Shown one piece after another: positions 1 through 22,768 of a stretch of 29,430 bases of DNA (its first letter is position 1; every line of letters starts with the position of its first letter). This DNA is from a virus (taxonomy: Duplodnaviria; Heunggongvirae; Uroviricota; Caudoviricetes). Below the pieces are notes generated by a model, which made no database searches, was not told the DNA's origin, and worked only from the letters and a program-made list of their open reading frames with translations. Location of the stretch: IMG/VR virus record IMGVR_UViG_2778261668_000002; one strand, 5' to 3'. The translations under genes were made by a program, and so were the position numbers.

Positions 1-981
1 TTATAACGTCACTCCGCCTTTTAGTGGATTCAGAGCGACGGCATTTTGCAGATAGTCAGGCGCAAGGTGCGCATAGGCCATCGTCTGCTGAATGCTCGCA
101 TGTCCCAGAATCTGTTGCAGTGCGATTATATTGCCCCCATTCATCATGAAATGGCTTGCGAATGTATGCCGCAGGATGTGGGTTGCCTGATTGGGTGGTA
201 TATCAGGTTTCACTCTGCGTAAAATCCCGCAAAATTTCTCATAATCAACTTTGAATAATTTGGCGCTGGCCTCCTCTTTAACTTTTTTCTCCAGTTCCTC
301 AGAAATCGGCACGGTTCGCTTTTTACCGTTTTTGGTTTTCAGGAAGGTAACCCTGCAATTTGTAATCTGTGCTGGTTTTAGCGTGGCAACTTCCGTCCAT
401 CTTCCTCCAGTGCTCAGACATAAAAGCGCGACAAGTAAGTCATCACCAGCCAAAACATTTAACAGTTTTTCGATTTCTGCTTTTTCCAGGAACGTCATTT
501 CAGGGTTGGCCTCCGCCAGTGGCGGCAGTCCGTGAATTGGGTGTTGCCCGGAAAATTCATCCAATTGAATTAATTTTGTGAACATGCCGGATAATCGGTA
601 CATGTCACGGTTTATCGTTGCGGCACTGATACCATCACGTAATCGCATGGAACGATAATCCATCAAAGCCCTTTTGCTCATCCTGCTCACTGGTATATCA
701 CCTATGCCGCTGATGGTTTTGAGTAGATGATTAAACTCTTTTGTTCCATGCTCGTGGTTTTGCCCGTGATATTTCCACCAGATGTCCAGCAACTCACTCA
801 AAGTCCGGCGGTCTGCTCGCTGGCCTCCCCATTCTTTCTGACTGGCATTGGCGATTGTGTATCGCTCAAATGCTAGTGCTTCAGCTTTTCTTTCGAATTT
901 CCTGCGGATGCGTTTTCCGTCGCGACCGCGAGGTCTAATGTCCACTTCATAGCGACCATCATCGAGCTTCTTAATTGCCAT
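1..981 (-). CDS. int: Tyrosine site-specific integrase (P2 Int family)
   Basis: Minus-strand ORF ending at position 1 with a C-terminal tyrosine-recombinase region (LRHTFASHFMMNGGNIIALQQILGH...MAYAH). Start placed at the ATG at 979-981 (MAIKKLDDGRYEV), which has a GGAGG Shine-Dalgarno 8 nt upstream; the track's longer ORF to 1011 has no ribosome-binding site. Confidence 0.9.
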   Translation of the reverse strand: MAIKKLDDGRYEVDIRPRGRDGKRIRRKFERKAEALAFERYTIANASQKEWGGQRADRRTLSELLDIWWKYHGQNHEHGTKEFNHLLKTISGIGDIPVSRMSKRALMDYRSMRLRDGISAATINRDMYRLSGMFTKLIQLDEFSGQHPIHGLPPLAEANPEMTFLEKAEIEKLLNVLAGDDLLVALLCLSTGGRWTEVATLKPAQITNCRVTFLKTKNGKKRTVPISEELEKKVKEEASAKLFKVDYEKFCGILRRVKPDIPPNQATHILRHTFASHFMMNGGNIIALQQILGHASIQQTMAYAHLAPDYLQNAVALNPLKGGVTL

Positions 982-1050
982 AAGAAAGCCCTCCGGCGCT
1001 GTATTCACCATCTTGGTAGCAAATGGTGAAAATGTAATCTTTATATAGAG

Positions 1051-3237: not shown

Positions 3238-3509
3238 GTATTCGTATTGAAATTGGCGAACGTTATGTCGTTACCAGTGACAGCTTTCAGTTTATTCTCC
3301 ACGAGAAAAAGAGAGCGGAAAGCGGTAAAAACGCCGGTCAGGAATGGCTGGCAGTGGTTGGTTATTACCCGAAATTAAGCCAGCTCGTTTCCGGCCTGAT
3401 GCATCACGATATTCTGACCGGAAGCGCAAAGTCTTTTGCTGATTTAAACGCGCAGGTTGAGCAACTCAGCAGGCGTTGTTCAGAGGCTTTTGGCTCATAT
3501 GGCCGTTAA
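3234..3509 (+). CDS. Early protein of unknown function (position of P2 orf83)
   Basis: 91-aa ORF with GGAG ribosome-binding site; overlaps the A start by 11 nt. Confidence 0.55.
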   Translation: MSIRIEIGERYVVTSDSFQFILHEKKRAESGKNAGQEWLAVVGYYPKLSQLVSGLMHHDILTGSAKSFADLNAQVEQLSRRCSEAFGSYGR

Positions 3510-5784
3510 AGCCTCCGGGCGTTTTGTCCCTCCGTCAGCATTTGCCGCAGGCACCGGTAAGGCGTTTACCGGTGCTTATGCATGGAACGCGCCACGCGAG
3601 GCCGTCGGGCGGGAAAGACCCCTTACACGTGACGAGATGCGTCAGGTGCAAGGTGTTTTATCCACGATTAACCGCCTGCCTTACTTTTTGCGCTCGCTGT
3701 TTACTTCACGCTATGACTACATCCGGCGCAATAAAAGCCCGGTGCACGGGTTTTATTTCCTCACATCCACTTTTCAGCGTCGTTTATGGCCGCGCATTGA
3801 GCGTGTGAATCAGCGCCATGAAATGAACACCGACGCGTCGTTGCTGTTTCTGGCAGAGCGCGACCAGTATGCGCGCCTGCCGGGGATGAATGACAAGGAG
3901 CTGAAAAAGTTTGCCGCCCGAATCTCATCGCAGCTTTTCATGATGTATGAGGAACTCTGCGATGCCTGGGTGGATGCGCATGGCGAAAAAGAATCGCTGT
4001 TTACGGATGAGGCGCAGGCTCACCTGTATGGTCATGTTGCTGGCGCTGCACGTGCTTTCAATATTTCCCCGCTTTACTGGAGAAAATACCGTAAAGGGCA
4101 GATGACCACGAGGCAGGCATATTCTGCCATTGCTCGCCTGTTTAACGATGAGTGGTGGATTAGTCAGCTTAAAGGCCAGCGTATGCGCTGGCATGAGGCG
4201 TTACTGATTGCTGTCGGGGAGGTCAATAAAGACCGTTCACCTTATGCCAGTAAACATGCCATTCGTGATGTGCGTGCGCGCCGCCAGGCAAATCTGGAAT
4301 TTCTTAAATCGTGTGACCTTGAAAACAGGGAAACCGGCGAGCGCATCGACCTTATCAGTAAGGTGATGGGCAGTATTTCTAATCCTGAAATTCGCCGGAT
4401 GGAGCTGATGAACACCATTGCCGGTATTGAGCGTTACGCCGCCTCAGAGGGTGATGTGGGGATGTTTATCACGCTTACCGCGCCGTCAAAGTATCACCCG
4501 ACACGTCAGGTTGGAAAAGGCGAAAATAAAACCGTCCAGCTTAATCACGGCTGGAATGATGAGGCATTTAATCCAAAGGATGCGCAGCGTTATCTCTGCC
4601 GTATCTGGAGCCTGATGCGCACGGCATTCAAGGATAATGATTTACAGGTCTACGGTTTGCGAGTCGTCGAGCCACACCACGACGGAACGCCGCACTGGCA
4701 TATGATGCTTTTTTGTAATCCACGCCAGCGTAACCAGATTATCGAAATCATGCGTCGCTATGCGCTCAAAGAGGATGGCGACGAAAGAGGAGCCGCGCGA
4801 AACCGTTTTCAGGCAAAACACCTTAACCGGGGCGGTGCTGCGGGATATATCGCGAAATACATTTCAAAAAATATCGACGGCTATGCACTGGATGGTCAGC
4901 TCGATAACGATACCGGCAGGCCGCTGAAAGACACTGCCGCGGCTGTTACCGCATGGGCGTCAACGTGGCGCATTCCGCAATTTAAAACGGTTGGCCTGCC
5001 GACAATGGGGGCTTACCGTGAACTACGCAAATTGCCTCGCGGCGTCAGCATTGCTGATGAGTTTGACGAGCGCGTCGAGGCTGCACGCGCCGCCGCAGAC
5101 AGTGGCGATTTTGCGTTGTATATCAGCGCGCAGGGTGGGGCAAATGTCCCGCGCGATTGTCAGACTGTCAGGGTCGCCCGTAGCCCGTCGGATGACGTTA
5201 ACGAGTACGAGGAAGAAGTCGAGAGAGTGGTCGGCATTTACGCGCCGCATCTCGGCGCGCGTCATATTCATATCACCAGAACGACGGACTGGCGCATTGT
5301 GCCGAAAGTTCCGGTCGTTGAGCCTTTGACTTTAAAAAGCGGCATCGCCGCGCCTCGGAGTCCTGTCAATAACTGTGGAAAGCTCACTGGTGGTGATACT
5401 TCGTTACCGGCTCCCACACCTTCTGAGCACGCCGCCGCAGTGCTTAATCTGGTTGATGACGGTGTTATCGAATGGAATGACCCGGAGGTCGTGAGGGCGC
5501 TCAGGGGCGCATTAAAACACGACCTGAGAACACCAAACCGTCAGCAAAGAAGCGGAAGCCCGTTAAAAGCGCATGAAATAGCGCCATCGGCCAGACTGAC
5601 CCGGTCGGAACGAATGCAAATTACCCGTATCCGCGTTGACCTTGCTCAGAACGGTATCAGGCCGCAGCGATGGGAGCTTGAGGCGCTGGTGCGTGGCGCG
5701 ACCGTAAATTATGACGGGAAAAAATTCACGTATCCGGTCGCTGATGAGTGGCCGGGATTCTCAACAGTAATGGAGTGGACATGA
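3499..5784 (+). CDS. A: Rolling-circle replication initiator endonuclease (P2 gpA family)
   Basis: 761-aa product from the ATG at 3499 (MAVKASGRF...; the track's ORF starts at an upstream TTG). Contains a metal-binding HxH motif (EPHHDGTPHWHMMLF) and a catalytic-tyrosine motif (GYIAKYISKNIDGY) typical of rolling-circle Rep proteins. Confidence 0.9.
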   Translation: MAVKASGRFVPPSAFAAGTGKAFTGAYAWNAPREAVGRERPLTRDEMRQVQGVLSTINRLPYFLRSLFTSRYDYIRRNKSPVHGFYFLTSTFQRRLWPRIERVNQRHEMNTDASLLFLAERDQYARLPGMNDKELKKFAARISSQLFMMYEELCDAWVDAHGEKESLFTDEAQAHLYGHVAGAARAFNISPLYWRKYRKGQMTTRQAYSAIARLFNDEWWISQLKGQRMRWHEALLIAVGEVNKDRSPYASKHAIRDVRARRQANLEFLKSCDLENRETGERIDLISKVMGSISNPEIRRMELMNTIAGIERYAASEGDVGMFITLTAPSKYHPTRQVGKGENKTVQLNHGWNDEAFNPKDAQRYLCRIWSLMRTAFKDNDLQVYGLRVVEPHHDGTPHWHMMLFCNPRQRNQIIEIMRRYALKEDGDERGAARNRFQAKHLNRGGAAGYIAKYISKNIDGYALDGQLDNDTGRPLKDTAAAVTAWASTWRIPQFKTVGLPTMGAYRELRKLPRGVSIADEFDERVEAARAAADSGDFALYISAQGGANVPRDCQTVRVARSPSDDVNEYEEEVERVVGIYAPHLGARHIHITRTTDWRIVPKVPVVEPLTLKSGIAAPRSPVNNCGKLTGGDTSLPAPTPSEHAAAVLNLVDDGVIEWNDPEVVRALRGALKHDLRTPNRQQRSGSPLKAHEIAPSARLTRSERMQITRIRVDLAQNGIRPQRWELEALVRGATVNYDGKKFTYPVADEWPGFSTVMEWT

Positions 5785-6236
5785 TGGCAAAAATTCACGA
5801 GGTAAAGCTGCACGCAAAATATTTTGACCTTGTGCTGGAAGGAAAGAAACGCGCAGAGTTTCGGAAAAATGACCGTAATTATGAGCGCGGGGACACGTTG
5901 ATTTTGCATGAATGGGCGCAGGGTGTGTATACGGGGCGAAAGGTTGAAGCCCGGATAACAGATGTTACTGACCTGTCAGACTGGCTGGAAGATTATGTCT
6001 TGCTAAGTATTGAGCTGCTTAATACAGGCGCATATGAGATTGTGAACTGGAAAGAACTTAGTGAGCGTGGTCTGGTATTCAGAATTAATCATGAAATTAT
6101 GCATCAGCTCGGCCTTGCTGTTATGTATGCACCAGAGACGGGGATGTCTGGCGGGGCAATGGTTGCCACGGATGGAGCATGGAACTATTCAGATGAACAG
6201 ATTGAGCGTGCAAAGCAAAACGGGTGGCTTGGATAA
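5781..6236 (+). CDS. ASCH/PUA-like (DUF3850-type) protein with a C-terminal extension containing an HExxH motif
   Basis: Start ATG overlaps the A stop (ATGA at 5781-5784). N-terminal EVKLHAKYFDLVLEGKKRAEFRKNDRNYERGDTLILHEW resembles ASCH-like domains; the C-terminal part contains NHEIMH. Confidence 0.55.
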   Translation: MMAKIHEVKLHAKYFDLVLEGKKRAEFRKNDRNYERGDTLILHEWAQGVYTGRKVEARITDVTDLSDWLEDYVLLSIELLNTGAYEIVNWKELSERGLVFRINHEIMHQLGLAVMYAPETGMSGGAMVATDGAWNYSDEQIERAKQNGWLG

Positions 6237-6442
6237 TGCACAGAATACCGGGCGAGATACCGCAACATAACACTAAAAATATCAAGCTGATGGCTATTGT
6301 TCACCGTCTACAGCAGATTATGGTCAACGAAAATCTGACGCCTGACGAGCTGGTCGGGTGTGCCGAAATAGTCCGGGATAATTACGGGCGGCTTAATTAT
6401 ATCCGTCAGTCCAGAGTTGCTCCACCGCCACGCAGACTATAG
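6236..6442 (+). CDS. Small hypothetical protein, translationally coupled to the ASCH-like gene
   Basis: TAATG overlap at 6234-6238; 68 aa; no recognisable motif. The track shows it from a GTG at 6224. Confidence 0.4.
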   Translation: MHRIPGEIPQHNTKNIKLMAIVHRLQQIMVNENLTPDELVGCAEIVRDNYGRLNYIRQSRVAPPPRRL

Positions 6443-6616
6443 AAAACGCCGTCAGTCTTGAAACTTGTTTTCAGGGCTGGCGGGGTTGAACAACGAGCAT
6501 CGCGAGGCGTTAGTGGTATTGGAACCAATGAGAAAACAAAAAACTCAACGCCTCCCCTCATGTTTGATGGTATGGTCTTGTTTTTAGGTAATGAAGCTTT
6601 ATTCGGGTGACGTGTC

Positions 6617-6622
6617 TAATAT
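6617..6622 (+). promoter_or_regulatory. Candidate -10 element (TAATAT) for the cargo gene
   Basis: TAATAT lies 36 nt upstream of the 6658 ATG in the AT-rich leader; no convincing -35 hexamer, so this is weak. Confidence 0.3.
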
Positions 6623-6657
6623 AGCTTTCTGCATGACGTTAGAATGATGATGAGATC

Positions 6658-7260
6658 ATGTTATTAATGAATGAGAAAAAAAGACAAAAATATCTAAAGA
6701 TAATGTTTGAATGTCAAAAGCGACTTGAAACACTTCATGCTTTATCATCTGGAAGGATTGATGGCATTTATTTTCAAGTGTTAATTGAAATGGAGGCGTT
6801 GCAGCTTAGGAAGCTACTAGAGCTCATTGCATTTTCATCTCTAATTTCACATGAAAAAGCATACGAGAAGGTTACAAAGAAGATTGATGGTGTATGGAAG
6901 GCGAAGAATATATTTAAAGAGTTGGAAAAGATAAACCCTAACTTTTATCCAGTACCAATATCAGGAGTAACCAAAACGGGCTGGACGAAACTAACGGGAG
7001 GTTTTTTGACGAAAAAACAGTTTATCAAGCTATATGATGAATGCTCAAAACATATTCACGTAAGGAACCCATATCGGGTTAGGGAAAACTCGCTGGGGTT
7101 TCATAAAAAAGTTCCAGAGTATTTATCAAGAATTGAAACTCTACTGTTAAAGCACATTGTTTCTCTTGCCGGGAATGAAGAACTTCTTCTTGTAGATGTG
7201 CCTCATTATGAAGACTCTGTAACAGCTATAAAAATGAGCCACCTCGTTAAAATGGGGTGA
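6658..7260 (+). CDS. Orphan AT-rich cargo gene in the P2 tin/old-equivalent slot; candidate single-gene anti-phage defence or abortive-infection protein
   Basis: 200-aa ORF (start 6658 or 6667) in an island of about 30-35% G+C by hand count; K/E-rich, no transmembrane segment; preceded by a 215-bp non-coding AT-rich leader and followed by a hairpin terminator; sits between replication gene A and cos. Confidence 0.65.
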   Translation: MLLMNEKKRQKYLKIMFECQKRLETLHALSSGRIDGIYFQVLIEMEALQLRKLLELIAFSSLISHEKAYEKVTKKIDGVWKAKNIFKELEKINPNFYPVPISGVTKTGWTKLTGGFLTKKQFIKLYDECSKHIHVRNPYRVRENSLGFHKKVPEYLSRIETLLLKHIVSLAGNEELLLVDVPHYEDSVTAIKMSHLVKMG

Positions 7261-7295
7261 AAAATAAGCAATAAATAGTCGATTCTAGTGAACGG

Positions 7296-7320
7296 TCGGC
7301 TATTTTTAGCCGGATTTTTA
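7296..7320 (+). terminator. Rho-independent terminator after the cargo gene
   Basis: Stem CGGCT (7297-7301) / AGCCG (7308-7312) with a T-rich loop, followed by GATTTTTA. Confidence 0.5.
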
Positions 7321-7478
7321 TACTGTTTCCCCTTAATTACAGTCGTTTCTATTCATGCATGTGCTATTGCATCGAATTGCATGCGTTTTCATCCCCTGTT
7401 GCTTATGAGCGTTGTCAGTGCTGGCGCATTCTCGGTATGTTCATGCAACTGCATCAAAATCGCCCCATGAAGCGGGCG

Positions 7479-7497
7479 GGCGAGGCGGGGAAAGCAC
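7479..7497. other. cos cohesive-end site of P2-type phages
   Basis: GGCGAGGCGGGGAAAGCAC matches my recollection of the 19-nt P2 cohesive end; it lies where cos is expected, between the cargo locus and portal gene Q. Confidence 0.55.
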
Positions 7498-7639
7498 TGC
7501 GCGCTGGCGGTGGTGCTGATTTTATTTTTTCGGCGTCTCAGCGCGTCGTGATGGCGTTTAGATTGTGTGCCGGGGCGTCGGTGTGTCTGCGGGCTGTTTT
7601 GCGTGGAGGTGAGCGTGTGAGGGCGTGATGACGGGGTGT

Positions 7640-7666: not shown

Positions 7667-8701
7667 TCAGCCGTTGTCAGTGTCCAGTGAGTAGTTTTTA
7701 AAGCGGATGACCTCCTGACCGAGCCAGCCGTTTATCTCGCGGATCCTGTCCTGTAGCGGGATAAGCTCATTGCGGACAAAGACCTTTGCCACTTTCTCAA
7801 TATCACCCAACGACCCGACGTTCTCCGGCTTGCCGCCCATCAACTGAAAGGGGATGCGGTGCGCGTCCAGCAGGTCAGCGGCGCTGGCTTTTTTGATATT
7901 AAAAAAATCGTCCTTCGTTGCCACTTCACTGAGCGGGATAATTTTAATGCCGTCGGCTTTCCCCTGCGGGGCATAGAGAAACAGATTTTTAAAGTTGTTG
8001 CGGCCTTTCGACTTCACCATGTTTTCGCGAAGCATTTCGATATCGTTGCGATCCTGCACGGCATCAGTGACGTACATGATGTATCCGGCATGTGCGCCGT
8101 TTTCGTAATACTTGCGGCGAAACAGCGTGGCCGACTCATTCAGCCAGGCAGAATTAAGGGCGCTGAGATATTCCGGCAGGCCGTACAGCTCCTGATTAAT
8201 ATCCGGCTCCAGCAGGTGAAACACGGAGCCGGGCGTGAAGGCTGTCGGCTCGTTGAAGGACGGCACCCACCAGTAAACATCCTCTTCCACACCACGGCGG
8301 GTATATTTTGCCGGTGAGGTTTCCAGTCTGATGACCTTACCGGTGGTGCTGTATCGCTTTTCCAGAAACGCATTACCGAACACCAGAAAATCCAGCACAA
8401 AGCGGCTGAAATCCTGTTGCGAAAGCCACGGGTGCGGGATAAACGTTGAAGCCAGAATATTGCGTTTGACGTAAATCGGTGAGCTGTGATGCACGGCAGC
8501 ACGCAGGCTTTTTGCCAGACCGGTAAAGCTGACCGGTGGCTCATACCATCTGCCGTTACTGATACACTCGACGTAATCCAGAATGTCACGGCGGTCGAGT
8601 ACCGGCACCGGCTCACCAAAGGTGAATGCCTCCATTTTCGGGGCGCTGGCGGTCATTGTTTTTGCCGCAGGTTGCGGTGTTTTCCCTTTTTTCTTGCTCA
8701 T
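7667..8701 (-). CDS. Q: Portal protein (P2 gpQ family)
   Basis: 344-aa minus-strand ORF adjacent to cos; its start overlaps the P stop (TGATG); length matches P2 Q. Confidence 0.9.
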   Translation of the reverse strand: MSKKKGKTPQPAAKTMTASAPKMEAFTFGEPVPVLDRRDILDYVECISNGRWYEPPVSFTGLAKSLRAAVHHSSPIYVKRNILASTFIPHPWLSQQDFSRFVLDFLVFGNAFLEKRYSTTGKVIRLETSPAKYTRRGVEEDVYWWVPSFNEPTAFTPGSVFHLLEPDINQELYGLPEYLSALNSAWLNESATLFRRKYYENGAHAGYIMYVTDAVQDRNDIEMLRENMVKSKGRNNFKNLFLYAPQGKADGIKIIPLSEVATKDDFFNIKKASAADLLDAHRIPFQLMGGKPENVGSLGDIEKVAKVFVRNELIPLQDRIREINGWLGQEVIRFKNYSLDTDNG

Positions 8702-19404: not shown

Positions 19405-20732
19405 CAGTGAAATACTACGCCATTCTGACTAATCAGGGCGCAGCACGGCTGGCTAACGCGACGATGCTCGGCAGTAAGCTGAATCTGACGCAAATGGCCG
19501 TTGGTGATGCGAATGGTGTCTTGCCGACACCAGACCCGGCACAGACAAAACTGATTAACCAGAAACGCATCGCGCCGCTGAATCTTCTGAATGTTGACCC
19601 GAACAACCAGAGCCAGATTATTGCGGAGCAAATCATCCCTGAGAACGAGGGCGGATTCTGGATCCGTGAGATTGGGCTTTATGATGATGAAGGCGTACTC
19701 ATTGCGGTGGCGAACTGCCCGGAAACGTACAAACCGCAGTTGCAGGAAGGCAGCGGTCGTACCCAGACTATCCGCATGATTCTGGTTGTCACGAATACCG
19801 AAGCTATCACGCTGAAAATCGACCCGTCGGTGGTACTGGCGACCCGTAAATACGTGGATGATGAAGTCCTGGAATTAAGGCTGTATGTGGATGACCAGAT
19901 GAGGAACCATATTGCCGCACAGGATCCTCATACCCAGTATGCACAGAAACATAATCCGACATTTACCGGAGAACCAAAAGCGCCGACGCCTGCCGCAGGA
20001 AATAACACCACGCGGATTGCGACCACTGAGTTTGTTCAGGCCGCTATTACCGCTCTGATTAACGGTGCGCCAGCCACGCTGGACACACTGAAAGAAATTG
20101 CCGCAGCCATTAACAATGACCCGAAATTCAGCACCACCATTAACAATGCGCTGTCAGGTAAGCAGCCACTGGATGAGACGCTGACTCATTTGAGTGGAAA
20201 GGATGTTGCCGGTCTTCTCGCATACCTTGGTTTAGGGGAAGGCTCTGCTTTGCCGGTTGGCGTCCCCATTCCGTGGCCGTCAGCAACACCCCCAACGGGA
20301 TGGCTTAAGTGCAACGGAGCGGCGTTCACGGCCTCCCAGTACCCTAAGCTGGCTCAGGCCTATCCGGCGCTCAGACTGCCTGATCTACGCGGGGAGTTTA
20401 TCCGGGGATGGGATGATGGGCGTGGGGTTGATGCAGGAAGGGAATTACTGTCAAGCCAGGAGCATACCGTCATATCCCACAATCACGCGATTCCTACGAC
20501 GGTTAATACTCCAACTGCTATCCCTCCAGGTGTAGAGCAGGTGATAGCAAATGAAACTATTTTTTCTCCTGCAGCTCAATACGGATGTGACTATTGGGCT
20601 AATGGAGGCAGGACATTCACCTATATGTCTGGCGGCAAAAATGGTGCGGAGAACATCAATGATGCCTCATCAATGAAAGGTGAAACTCGTCCACGCAACG
20701 TCGTATTTAACTACATCGTGAGGGCTGCATAA
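19401..20732 (+). CDS. H: Tail fibre protein H: constant N-terminal part plus the currently expressed invertible C-terminal part
   Basis: 443 aa; N-terminus MTVKYYAILTNQGAARLANA typical of P2-like fibres; the C-terminal part contains RGEFIRGWDDGRGVD. The hix-like site at 20215-20240 lies inside the coding frame. Confidence 0.85.
   Translation: MTVKYYAILTNQGAARLANATMLGSKLNLTQMAVGDANGVLPTPDPAQTKLINQKRIAPLNLLNVDPNNQSQIIAEQIIPENEGGFWIREIGLYDDEGVLIAVANCPETYKPQLQEGSGRTQTIRMILVVTNTEAITLKIDPSVVLATRKYVDDEVLELRLYVDDQMRNHIAAQDPHTQYAQKHNPTFTGEPKAPTPAAGNNTTRIATTEFVQAAITALINGAPATLDTLKEIAAAINNDPKFSTTINNALSGKQPLDETLTHLSGKDVAGLLAYLGLGEGSALPVGVPIPWPSATPPTGWLKCNGAAFTASQYPKLAQAYPALRLPDLRGEFIRGWDDGRGVDAGRELLSSQEHTVISHNHAIPTTVNTPTAIPPGVEQVIANETIFSPAAQYGCDYWANGGRTFTYMSGGKNGAENINDASSMKGETRPRNVVFNYIVRAA
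20215..20240. repeat. hix-like 26-bp recombination site (left) inside gene H
   Basis: TTCTCGCATACCTTGGTTTAGGGGAA; 22 of 26 positions, including the central TTGGTTTAGG, match the reverse complement of the site at 22094-22119, and it resembles the hix/gix consensus as I remember it. Confidence 0.6.
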
Positions 20733-21334
20733 TGGTCAAAGCTGAATTAAATCAGGACATGATCGCCACGGTGGCCGGTGAAATCACCGTCTACAACTAC
20801 GATGGCGAGACGCGCGAATATCTTTCCACATCAACTGAATATCTTGCGGTTGGCGTCGGCATCCCGGCATGTTCTTGTTTAGATGCACCAGTTACACATA
20901 AAGCTGGTTATGCAATCTGCCGTTCTGCAGATTTTAACTCATGGGAATATGTGCCAGACCATCGCGGTGAAATTGTCTATAGCACCGAAACGGGAGATAC
21001 CAAAGAAATCACAACTCCGGGCGACTATCCCGAAAATACAACCACCCTCGCCCCGTTAACGCCATACGATGAATGGGATGGTGAGAAATGGGTGACAGAT
21101 ACTGAGGCACAGCATAGCGCCGCAGTAGGCGCGGCAGAAGCACAGCGTCAGTCACTGATTGATACTGCAATGGCTTCCATTAGTCTGATTCAACTGAAAT
21201 TGCAGGCCGGGCGGAAGCTGATGCAGACAGAAAACACCCGACTTAACGCTGTGCTGGATTACATTGACGCGGTGACGGCAACAGATACCAGCACCGCGCC
21301 GGACGTCATCTGGCCTGAACTGCCGGAGGCGTAG
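20732..21334 (+). CDS. G: Tail fibre assembly chaperone (gpG/Tfa family), inside the invertible segment
   Basis: 200-aa ORF with a TAATG overlap with H. Confidence 0.75.
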   Translation: MVKAELNQDMIATVAGEITVYNYDGETREYLSTSTEYLAVGVGIPACSCLDAPVTHKAGYAICRSADFNSWEYVPDHRGEIVYSTETGDTKEITTPGDYPENTTTLAPLTPYDEWDGEKWVTDTEAQHSAAVGAAEAQRQSLIDTAMASISLIQLKLQAGRKLMQTENTRLNAVLDYIDAVTATDTSTAPDVIWPELPEA

Positions 21335-21746
21335 GCCATTCAATATCTGGCGCACCGGAAGTATCGACCAGTTCCAGTGCGTCCAGATAATCCAGCCACA
21401 AATTATATTGCGCCAGTTCCTCACCTTTCAGGCGACCAATCGCCGCTTTACCAGGCCATTGCTTACTGTTTATGTATTCGTTGACCTGATCAATCAATTG
21501 CTGCTTTTCCAGTTCGGCTGCGGCAATTTGTTCCTCATGAGTTGGCGGTGGAATATCAATCCATGCAGGCATTCCGTCGATGACGCCTCTGTATTTTCCT
21601 TCTGGTGCTTCCTTCATAAATTCGGCGGCAACAGTGTCGTCAATTTCGATTCCATCATCGGGCCATTCGCCGGATTCCTGATAAGCGATTTTAAGCTCCA
21701 CAGGGAAAAACGCATTTTTATCGGCACTGAAAATATATTTCTGCAT
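21306..21746 (-). CDS. Alternative tail fibre assembly chaperone (Tfa), opposite orientation
   Basis: 146-aa minus-strand ORF; its C-terminus (LVDTSGAPDIEWPTPPA) is similar to the gpG C-terminus (ATDTSTAPDVIWPELPEA). Confidence 0.7.
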   Translation of the reverse strand: MQKYIFSADKNAFFPVELKIAYQESGEWPDDGIEIDDTVAAEFMKEAPEGKYRGVIDGMPAWIDIPPPTHEEQIAAAELEKQQLIDQVNEYINSKQWPGKAAIGRLKGEELAQYNLWLDYLDALELVDTSGAPDIEWPTPPAVQAR

Positions 21747-21748
21747 TT

Positions 21749-22147
21749 CTACCGTCCTATCGAAATATAACTGAATCTGTATTGCTGTGAGATATCACTG
21801 GTTGCCACACGCCACGCTGAATTACTGATATGTTCAAAATTTACAGACAAAACCTGCGGGGCAGGATTCGACGGGTCTGACTGAACGGCATCAGACATAA
21901 CACTGACTGAAACCATTGGCTGATTAGGGAATGGTATAGGGAAGTGTCCACTGATAAAGCGGGTCGTGTTTCCTGAAAAAGTGCCAAACTGAACAATATA
22001 TCCACCTGGTAGCCTGAACCATCCCGAACCAGAAGCGAATGCTCCCATATCCGGTATCTGATTATCTCCTGTGCCCACATCCCTTTTCGCCGCTTCTCCT
22101 AAACCAACGTTTATGAAAATGCAGAGATAACGGGCAACTGGCATCAT
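21749..22147 (-). CDS. Alternative tail fibre C-terminal segment, silent in this orientation; would fuse to the constant part of H after inversion
   Basis: Minus-strand reading frame running into the hix-like site at 22094-22119 and encoding ...VGLGEAAKRDVGTG..., which matches ...AYLGLGE at the hix site inside H. Confidence 0.65.
   Translation of the reverse strand: MMPVARYLCIFINVGLGEAAKRDVGTGDNQIPDMGAFASGSGWFRLPGGYIVQFGTFSGNTTRFISGHFPIPFPNQPMVSVSVMSDAVQSDPSNPAPQVLSVNFEHISNSAWRVATSDISQQYRFSYISIGR
22094..22119. repeat. hix-like 26-bp recombination site (right), about 55 bp upstream of the invertase gene
   Basis: TTCTCCTAAACCAACGTTTATGAAAA; inverted relative to the site at 20215-20240. Confidence 0.6.
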
Positions 22148-22174
22148 CTCCGGTTTTTATTCAGGGGGATGCTC

Positions 22175-22768
22175 ATGCTTATTGGCTATGTACGCGTGTC
22201 AACAAATGACCAGAACACGGAATTGCAGCGTAACGCGCTGGAGTGCGCGGGATGTGAGCGGATTTTTGAGGACAAAATCAGCGGCACGAAGTCCGACAGG
22301 CCGGGACTGAAAAAACTGCTCAGGACATTATCGGAGGGGGATACACTGGTAGTCTGGAAGCTGGACCGGCTGGGGCGTAGTATGCGGCATCTGGTCATTC
22401 TGGTTGAGGAGCTGCGCGAACGCGGCATTAATTTTCGCAGCCTGACGGATGCTATTGATACCAGCACGCCGATGGGGCGTTTTTTCTTTCATGTGATGGG
22501 TGCCCTGGCTGAAATGGAACGAGAACTCATTGTCGAGCGGACTCGGGCCGGGCTGGAAGCGGCCAGAGCCAAAGGTCGTATTGGTGGCAGACGACCGAAA
22601 CTCACCGCGAGTGAGTGGGAGCAGGCCGGGCGTTTGCTGGCTGCAGGGGAGTCACGTCAACGCGTGGCACTGATTTTTGATATTGGTCTGTCCACGCTCT
22701 ATAAAAAATTTCCCTCATCAGCGACAAAGAATAAATTGTGTCATCCCTTAGCCAACCGGGACAAATAG
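22175..22768 (+). CDS. Hin/Gin/Cin-family serine DNA invertase
   Basis: N-terminus MLIGYVRVSTNDQNTELQRNAL with the catalytic serine context and a C-terminal HTH (GLSTLYKKF); GGGGG ribosome-binding site 6 nt upstream of the ATG at 22175. Confidence 0.9.
   Translation: MLIGYVRVSTNDQNTELQRNALECAGCERIFEDKISGTKSDRPGLKKLLRTLSEGDTLVVWKLDRLGRSMRHLVILVEELRERGINFRSLTDAIDTSTPMGRFFFHVMGALAEMERELIVERTRAGLEAARAKGRIGGRRPKLTASEWEQAGRLLAAGESRQRVALIFDIGLSTLYKKFPSSATKNKLCHPLANRDK

Follow-up and report, generated by a model that had tools for sequence, protein, structure and literature searches.

The question raised by this locus is whether a short open reading frame lying between two conserved genes of a prophage encodes an anti-phage protein, and whether that protein could be an RNase of the HEPN type, as was hinted in a preliminary description on the basis of two R-x(4-6)-H strings in its translation. 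The whole stretch of DNA that was analyzed, called the window here (29,430 nucleotides), is a P2-like (Peduovirus) prophage. Its genes are ordered as integrase (1-1011, minus strand), Cox and early genes, gpA, a DUF3850/ASCH gene, a gp92-like ORF, the ORF under study (the cargo ORF), portal gene Q, terminase gene P, and late genes. The features that define the position of the cargo ORF are:

3457..5784, plus strand: gpA replication endonuclease, the left conserved flank (RefSeq; Phage_GPA in homologous loci)
6515..6666, plus strand: AT-rich leader, the left end of the variable segment (P2-like homology ends at about 6513-6514)
6667..7260, plus strand: cargo CDS, 197 aa (RefSeq CDS WP_021519103, which starts at M4; member of PHROG 13799)
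7296..7321, plus strand: hairpin and T run resembling an intrinsic terminator (TCGGCTATTTTTAGCCGG and then ATTTTTATAC), 36 nt past the stop codon and within the cargo segment
7368..7445, no strand: right junction zone, in which alignment with other P2-like phages begins again
7479..7497, plus strand: P2-type cos 19-mer GGCGAGGCGGGGAAAGCAC, adjoining the cargo, read from the sequence
7667..8701, minus strand: portal protein gpQ, the right conserved flank (RefSeq: phage portal protein)

Alignment with related genomes placed the cargo ORF in a variable segment. When positions 5400-6700 were compared with phages by megablast, most P2-like genomes aligned up to query position 1114-1115, which is about 6514 in the window; with positions 6400-7600 as the query, other Peduovirus genomes aligned from query position 969-1046, or 7368-7445 in the window. 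Because collinear P2-like homology stops at about 6514 and resumes at about 7368-7445, the variable segment is approximately 0.9 kb long and is located between gpA/orf91/gp92 on one side and cos/portal Q on the other. The cargo ORF is the only gene in this segment, in which no further plausible ORF and no Rfam hit were found and the only repeats were short and present in two copies. The plus strand of the leader contained no strict match to a sigma-70 promoter. The sequence GGCGAGGCGGGGAAAGCAC, which we take to be the P2/P4 cohesive-end 19-mer, is found roughly 40-110 nt to the right of the right junction of the cargo, so that the cargo is directly adjacent to cos, as described for the hotspot. 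Its position between gpA and gpQ, beside cos and variable among collinear P2-like phages, is that of the gpA-gpQ (tin/old) hotspot. This locus, the site of tin and old in P2, is a cos-adjoining hotspot of anti-phage systems (Rousset et al. 2022). WP_021519103 was entered seven times as 'hypothetical' cargo in the supplementary table of that study and was outside the systems assayed there. The identical gene was found in 21 of 5,426 complete E. coli genomes. Only two phage records carry the gene, and Yersinia phage vB_YpM_50 carries it at 99.4% identity.

The genes just to the left of the variable segment are part of the P2-like backbone and not cargo: a DUF3850/ASCH + DUF7415 gene (5748-6236) that overlaps the end of gpA, and a 72-aa ORF without Pfam hits (6224-6442), which is gp92 in phage Wphi. 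The variable segment is bracketed by a 13-nt direct repeat (GCTGGCGGGGTTG / GCTGGCGGTGGTG) and likewise by a 12-nt inverted repeat (GCTCCACCGCCA / TGGCGGTGGTGC), with sites at 6419-6488 and 7503-7516. These repeats are probably due to chance; they fall in the conserved flanks, where recombination would exchange cargo. Farther along the window, positions 20732-22768 contain an invertible tail-fiber module that resembles the Gin/Cin host-range switches:

20732-21334, plus strand: second tail-fiber assembly gene
21306-21746, minus strand: tail-fiber assembly gene
21749-22147, minus strand: C-terminal piece of a tail fiber, in opposite orientation beside the invertase
22169-22768, plus strand: serine invertase (Resolvase + HTH_7)

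The reading frame in the preliminary description (6658-7260, plus strand, 200 aa) began at an upstream in-frame ATG at 6658. As RefSeq and all of the homologs begin at the second in-frame ATG (6667, M4), the true protein is probably 197 aa in length; residue numbers given here are those of the 200-aa frame. The cargo ORF encodes a real protein under constraint, with dN/dS values of 0.07-0.14 in comparison with the Enterobacter and Salmonella homologs. The proposal that it is not a gene at all was rejected on the basis of these values and the breadth of the family. The GC content of the gene (0.34-0.38, about 0.36) is the lowest in the whole window, whereas that of its flanks is about 0.55, and the gene is foreign in composition and horizontally acquired. 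The protein contains eight arginines and eight histidines.

The protein belongs to a large family that was previously undescribed. A word-indexed search retrieved 44 close clusters, all annotated as 'hypothetical' and without Pfam domains, and an exhaustive profile search retrieved 2,262 representatives at 50% identity with E ≤ 1e-3, 308 of them at E ≤ 1e-30, so the family comprises 2,262 or more clusters at that level of identity. A second profile search found only unnamed, domain-less proteins, which came from Gammaproteobacteria, Nitrospinae, Sulfuricurvum, Nitrosomonas and many metagenomes. The sole library match was to PHROG 13799 (full-length, E 1.8e-109, unknown function), which indicates that the family had already been seen in phage genomes and adds no functional annotation. 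Comparison of the query with Pfam, NCBIfam and PADLOC gave only noise, such as MIT and TPPII_C at E > 0.03, and none of the defense HMMs in PADLOC-DB v2.0.0 matched it at E ≤ 10. Nor was a recurring family identified when the family consensus was compared with Pfam or when 124 diverse members were compared with Pfam and PADLOC, the latter giving scattered single PADLOC hits. Sequence-profile searches of the PDB with two family alignments (A1 and A2) returned nothing relevant. Full-text literature contained no mention of the accession, the PHROG id or the phage protein id, and the cargo protein was absent from the DefensePredictor supplements.

The longer family members were also scanned with Pfam, and no informative domain fusions were found. 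Several of them have additional pieces without a Pfam match: two or three N-terminal transmembrane helices in P0115, an N-terminal CxxC...CxxC piece resembling a zinc ribbon in P0077 and P0178, and an acidic C-terminal extension of about 150 aa that P0052 and P0056 have in common.

Analysis of the genes surrounding the homologs showed that the family recurs in the gpA-Q hotspot of three genera. Enterobacter homologs (76% identity) are encoded directly after gpA in P2-like prophages, and the homolog is the sole cargo in two of these loci and accompanied by unrelated extra genes in two others. The Salmonella homolog (72% identity), present in 806 index blocks, occupies the same hotspot of 186/P2-like prophages with DinI and unannotated genes as its neighbors. 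A narrow alignment yielded 18 related loci, and the neighboring ORFs of 16 of them were clustered. Among these 16 loci, from marine and other Gammaproteobacteria, no neighbor family was common to more than three and none was adjacent to the homolog. Because there is no adjacent or widely shared neighbor family in the 16 loci, the gene has no antitoxin or partner. This also distinguishes it from the type VII HEPN-MNT systems, since it is the sole ORF in the cargo segment and no minimal nucleotidyltransferase antitoxin is adjacent to it.

The neighbors in the 16 loci included one Gabija pair, one Pycsar cyclase, AriA-like ATPases and a YoeB toxin, along with many housekeeping genes. Four more distant members were found downstream of an MmeI-type restriction-modification (RM) system (twice), between HTH and Abi_alpha genes and a type I RM operon, and among housekeeping genes; the neighbors of further members were transposase and HNH genes or small groups of genes without annotation. 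The family is genuinely associated with defense islands, although not in every locus. Other unannotated cargo accompanies the homolog in P2/186-like hotspots of Enterobacter and Salmonella (L004 9258-10978 and L032 3663-4917), consisting of opposite-strand genes for 172-aa and 399-aa proteins in one hotspot and of DinI and a 243-aa protein in the other, and these companion genes are further candidates for hotspot systems. In Pseudomonas benzenivorans (L003 6516-7946) the homolog is preceded by same-strand genes for proteins of 128 aa and 307 aa, both without Pfam hits, in what may be a small islet of dark matter between metabolic genes.

The positions of the two R-x(4-6)-H strings, and of the residues that proved to be most conserved, are:

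6721..6738, plus strand: first string, R22-L-E-T-L-H27 (KRLETLH), in helix 1 (residues 6-30)
6787..6822, plus strand: helix-2 block E44...Q49-x-R51-K52-x-L54-E55, the stretch with the highest conservation in the family (Q49 in 290 of 310)
7042..7071, plus strand: H134 element (C129, H134, N137, P138), with H134 just after the helix formed by residues 119-133
7081..7104, plus strand: second string, R142-E-N-S-L-G-F-H149 (RENSLGFH), in the loop before helix 4 and the first turn of that helix
7153..7155, plus strand: H166 codon, for the family-invariant histidine directly after helix 4 (145-164)

Both strings are present in the translation, at residues 22-27 and 142-149, and there is no other R-x(4-6)-H. 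The preliminary description had cautioned that motifs this short are frequent by chance, and this is the case: 20,000 shuffles of the protein's own residues contained 0.94 R-x(4-6)-H pairs on average, with a probability of 0.62 of at least one pair and 0.24 of at least two. Among 310 aligned family members, R22 was conserved in 303 and H27 in only 23, while R142 was found in 26, H149 in 45, and both together in 6. An HEPN catalytic motif would be expected at the end of helix 3 (PMC3710099), and neither string is located there. The suggestion that the strings point to an HEPN RNase therefore fails, because they occur at chance level, are poorly conserved and are in the wrong helices. Judged by the alignment, both strings are accidents of one sequence and neither is a feature of the family.

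A different set of residues was nearly invariant in the same 310 sequences. E55 was found in all 310; R51, H134 and P98 in 309; N137, P138 and H166 in 305; E44 in 304; and R22 in 303. Also strongly conserved were C129 (279 of 310), Y12, Y69, W80, N93-P94-x-F-Y-P-x-P100 and L117-T118. The invariance of R22, E44, R51, E55, H134, N137 and H166 suggests that the protein may be an enzyme.

An AlphaFold2 model built from a 41-sequence alignment was confident (pLDDT 86, pTM 0.86). It contained core helices at residues 6-30, 39-62, 119-133 and 145-164, a 56-residue insert between helices 2 and 3 (helices 66-76 and 82-92, which form a helical hairpin, and a beta-hairpin at 99-111), and C-terminal strands at 165-169, 176-180 and 192-196, which in the model probably join into a small sheet. 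The structure prediction proposed in the preliminary description yielded a four-helix core, with the first string inside helix 1 and the second at the start of helix 4. Foldseek comparison of the model with the PDB gave no significant match (best E 0.84), and comparison with the viral structures in BFVD gave no meaningful hit. Fourteen of the 26 best-ranked PDB chains were HEPN proteins, all of them statistically insignificant, and HepT/HEPN-MNT toxins of Shewanella and Aphanizomenon accounted for 13 of these 14. The top match, the Sulfolobus protein 2Q00, is presumably the remaining HEPN protein. Designed helical bundles scored as well as the HEPN toxins.

In HEPN domains, the catalytic motif sits at the end of helix 3, helix 2 carries a conserved acidic residue, typically as E-x3-[KR], and inserts between helices 2 and 3 are typical (PMC3710099). 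In the model of the cargo protein, H134 directly follows helix 3, at the canonical position of the HEPN histidine, and the arginine that should precede it is mostly absent. Positions -7 to -5 relative to H134 are D127-E128-C129 in the window protein, and an arginine at any of positions -5 to -7 was found in 43 of the 310 family members; position 128 is lysine in 114, arginine in 42 and glutamate in 46. The invariant helix-2 residues E44, R51 and E55 form an R-x3-E pattern and not the E-x3-[KR] of HEPN.

No HEPN-type Pfam family matched the query, the family consensus or any of the 124 diverse members at E ≤ 1. The family profile was also aligned by hhalign with a profile of natural DUF86/HepT proteins (A4), the sole HEPN family compared profile-to-profile. 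The proteins in A4 were retrieved with a consensus-like seed; PF01934 is annotated in every one of them, and a PDB search with the profile recovers 5YEP, 6M6U and 7BXO. The resulting hhalign probability was 0.7%, and neither the Pfam scans nor this comparison linked the family to HEPN proteins. A relaxed hhalign path that places H134 on the HepT catalytic histidine was not significant and serves only as an illustration. Membership of the HEPN group is not established, and the modeled fold of the family resembles HEPN RNases only weakly; a derived HEPN-like fold with a non-canonical site is possible.

Comparison with HepT/DUF86 (PF01934), the toxins of type VII HEPN-MNT systems (PDB 5YEP, 7BXO, 8XDJ, 7AE6), illustrates both sides of this resemblance. 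The cargo protein has what may be a four-helix up-down core like theirs, and it has an invariant arginine and glutamate in helix 2 (R51/E55, versus R50/E53/E57 of HepT in alignment A4), and they are its best-ranked natural structural neighbors, with fold scores at noise level. In contrast to HepT, it lacks R-x4-H-x-Y and has a conserved cysteine in place of the arginine, its gene has no MNT antitoxin or other conserved neighbor, and it is about 70 residues longer, with the 56-residue insert and five beta-strands. HEPN families with degenerate motifs offer another analogy. The histidine is kept and the arginine lost in the Parep1/8 families, and AbiV and AF0298 use an alternative histidine (Anantharaman et al. 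2013, PMC3710099). These families offer a precedent for retention of the histidine, loss of the arginine and use of other basic residues, and an insert between helices 2 and 3, like that of the cargo protein, is typical there; however, the analogy comes from the paper, and no sequence or profile link to Parep1/8, AbiV or AF0298 was found.

[quoted passage not shown] 2022). It occupies the same cos-adjacent locus as a short cassette with foreign GC content and its own terminator, and single-gene systems are known there, but its sequence is unrelated to theirs and has no PADLOC hit. By analogy with the hotspot and the neighbors of the homologs, a defense role for the cargo gene, which remains a candidate, seems to have slightly better than even chances.

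The reading that best accounts for these observations, and that we hold tentatively and at somewhat less than even confidence, is that of a stand-alone hotspot gene encoding a single-component anti-phage factor, with a non-canonical HEPN-like nuclease as the most specific mechanism. The protein would then act as a single-component exclusion or abortive-infection factor with a working site built from R22, E44, R51, E55, H134, N137 and H166. H134 would occupy the canonical HEPN place, and basic and acidic residues from helices 1 and 2 would replace the motif arginine. Since there is no antitoxin partner, such a nuclease, whose substrate may be RNA, would have to be kept harmless until infection. 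This mechanism taken by itself, a metal-independent HEPN-like nuclease centered on His134 with arginines and glutamates contributed by helices 1 and 2, is doubtful, and the five beta-strands in the model, which typical HEPN domains lack, argue against it. Weighing against the reading as a whole are that no defense HMM in PADLOC-DB v2.0.0 matches the protein, that no anti-phage phenotype is known for it, and that several chromosomal homologs are found among housekeeping genes.

Other explanations account for parts of the same evidence. A canonical HEPN RNase with R22-x4-H27 and/or R142-x6-H149 as its catalytic site would agree with the helical-bundle fold, with the form of both strings and with the conservation of H149 in at least 90% of the closest subfamily, but it is extremely improbable: in addition to the chance frequency of the strings and their misplacement in helix 1 and the beginning of helix 4, the protein was matched by none of the HEPN family models, and the conservation of the pairs in only 23 and 6 of the 310 relatives effectively refutes it. 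A second alternative is a helical protein that binds and is not an enzyme. P2 Tin poisons or sequesters gp32 of T-even phages, and the cargo protein could be a similar exclusion or decoy protein, or an anti-defense or regulatory protein, with the invariant residues forming a network for binding or structural support. Hotspot proteins that are small and all-alpha often act through binding, no catalytic motif of any known family is recognizable here, and a single gene without an antitoxin is what would be expected of a non-toxic protein. The pairs R51-x3-E55 and R22/E44 might serve as salt bridges with a structural role. Against this, eight polar residues, including two histidines and Asn-Pro, are nearly invariant across clusters with less than 50% identity from very different bacteria, a degree of constraint seen more often in active sites than in surfaces that contact rapidly evolving targets in phages, and the family is widespread outside prophages. 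A non-enzymatic binder is unlikely.

If the invariant residues do form an active site, it could belong to another enzyme class built on a helical bundle, for example a metal-dependent hydrolase or transferase of non-HEPN type with C129, H134, H166, E44 and E55 as ligands. Many of the invariant residues are typical metal ligands, HEPN folds match the model no better than generic four-helix bundles do, and the extra beta-strands are atypical of HEPN. On the other hand, no metalloenzyme family matched, the best-ranked natural Foldseek matches are HEPN toxins, and a simple up-down bundle would place H134 at one end of helices 3 and 4 and H166 at the other, so that they are unlikely to share one site; this alternative is quite unlikely. 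The same low probability applies to a moron that rides in the hotspot with a role in host fitness, regulation or prophage maintenance. About one P2 hotspot in four carries non-defense cargo in the form of partition systems, and some carry toxins (Rousset et al. 2022), and several homologs are flanked by housekeeping genes. However, RM, Abi, Gabija and Pycsar genes recur next to members of the family, which also repeatedly occupies the gpA-Q hotspot in three genera. Furthermore, six of eight randomly chosen loci of unknown function were protective in a later study, in which the loci came from hotspots of P4 satellites and not of P2.

The single-component anti-phage reading can be extended to the family, although this broader proposal is rather unlikely in its entirety. 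The cargo protein would represent, in E. coli, a family of immune effectors that stand alone, with more than 2,000 clusters at 50% identity, partner-less and distributed from P2/186 hotspots to marine and soil defense islands. It would be either a highly derived HEPN-like nuclease or an entirely new alpha+beta nuclease, in which C-x4-H-x2-N-P and the invariant arginines and glutamates of helices 1 and 2 replace R-x(4-6)-H.

The gpA-gpQ locus of P2 has proved to harbor a store of anti-phage genes, and a sizeable share of its cargo is unannotated. The cargo gene in this window, at 0.6 kb and with no partner, is a small candidate whose invariant residues are already listed and which has thousands of relatives. 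If it has no role in defense, it would be a caution that residence in a hotspot and short R-x-H strings alone do not indicate an abortive-infection RNase. If the HEPN-like interpretation is true, the known plasticity of the HEPN active site would be wider, and if the defense role is true, the gene would represent a new single-protein defense family.
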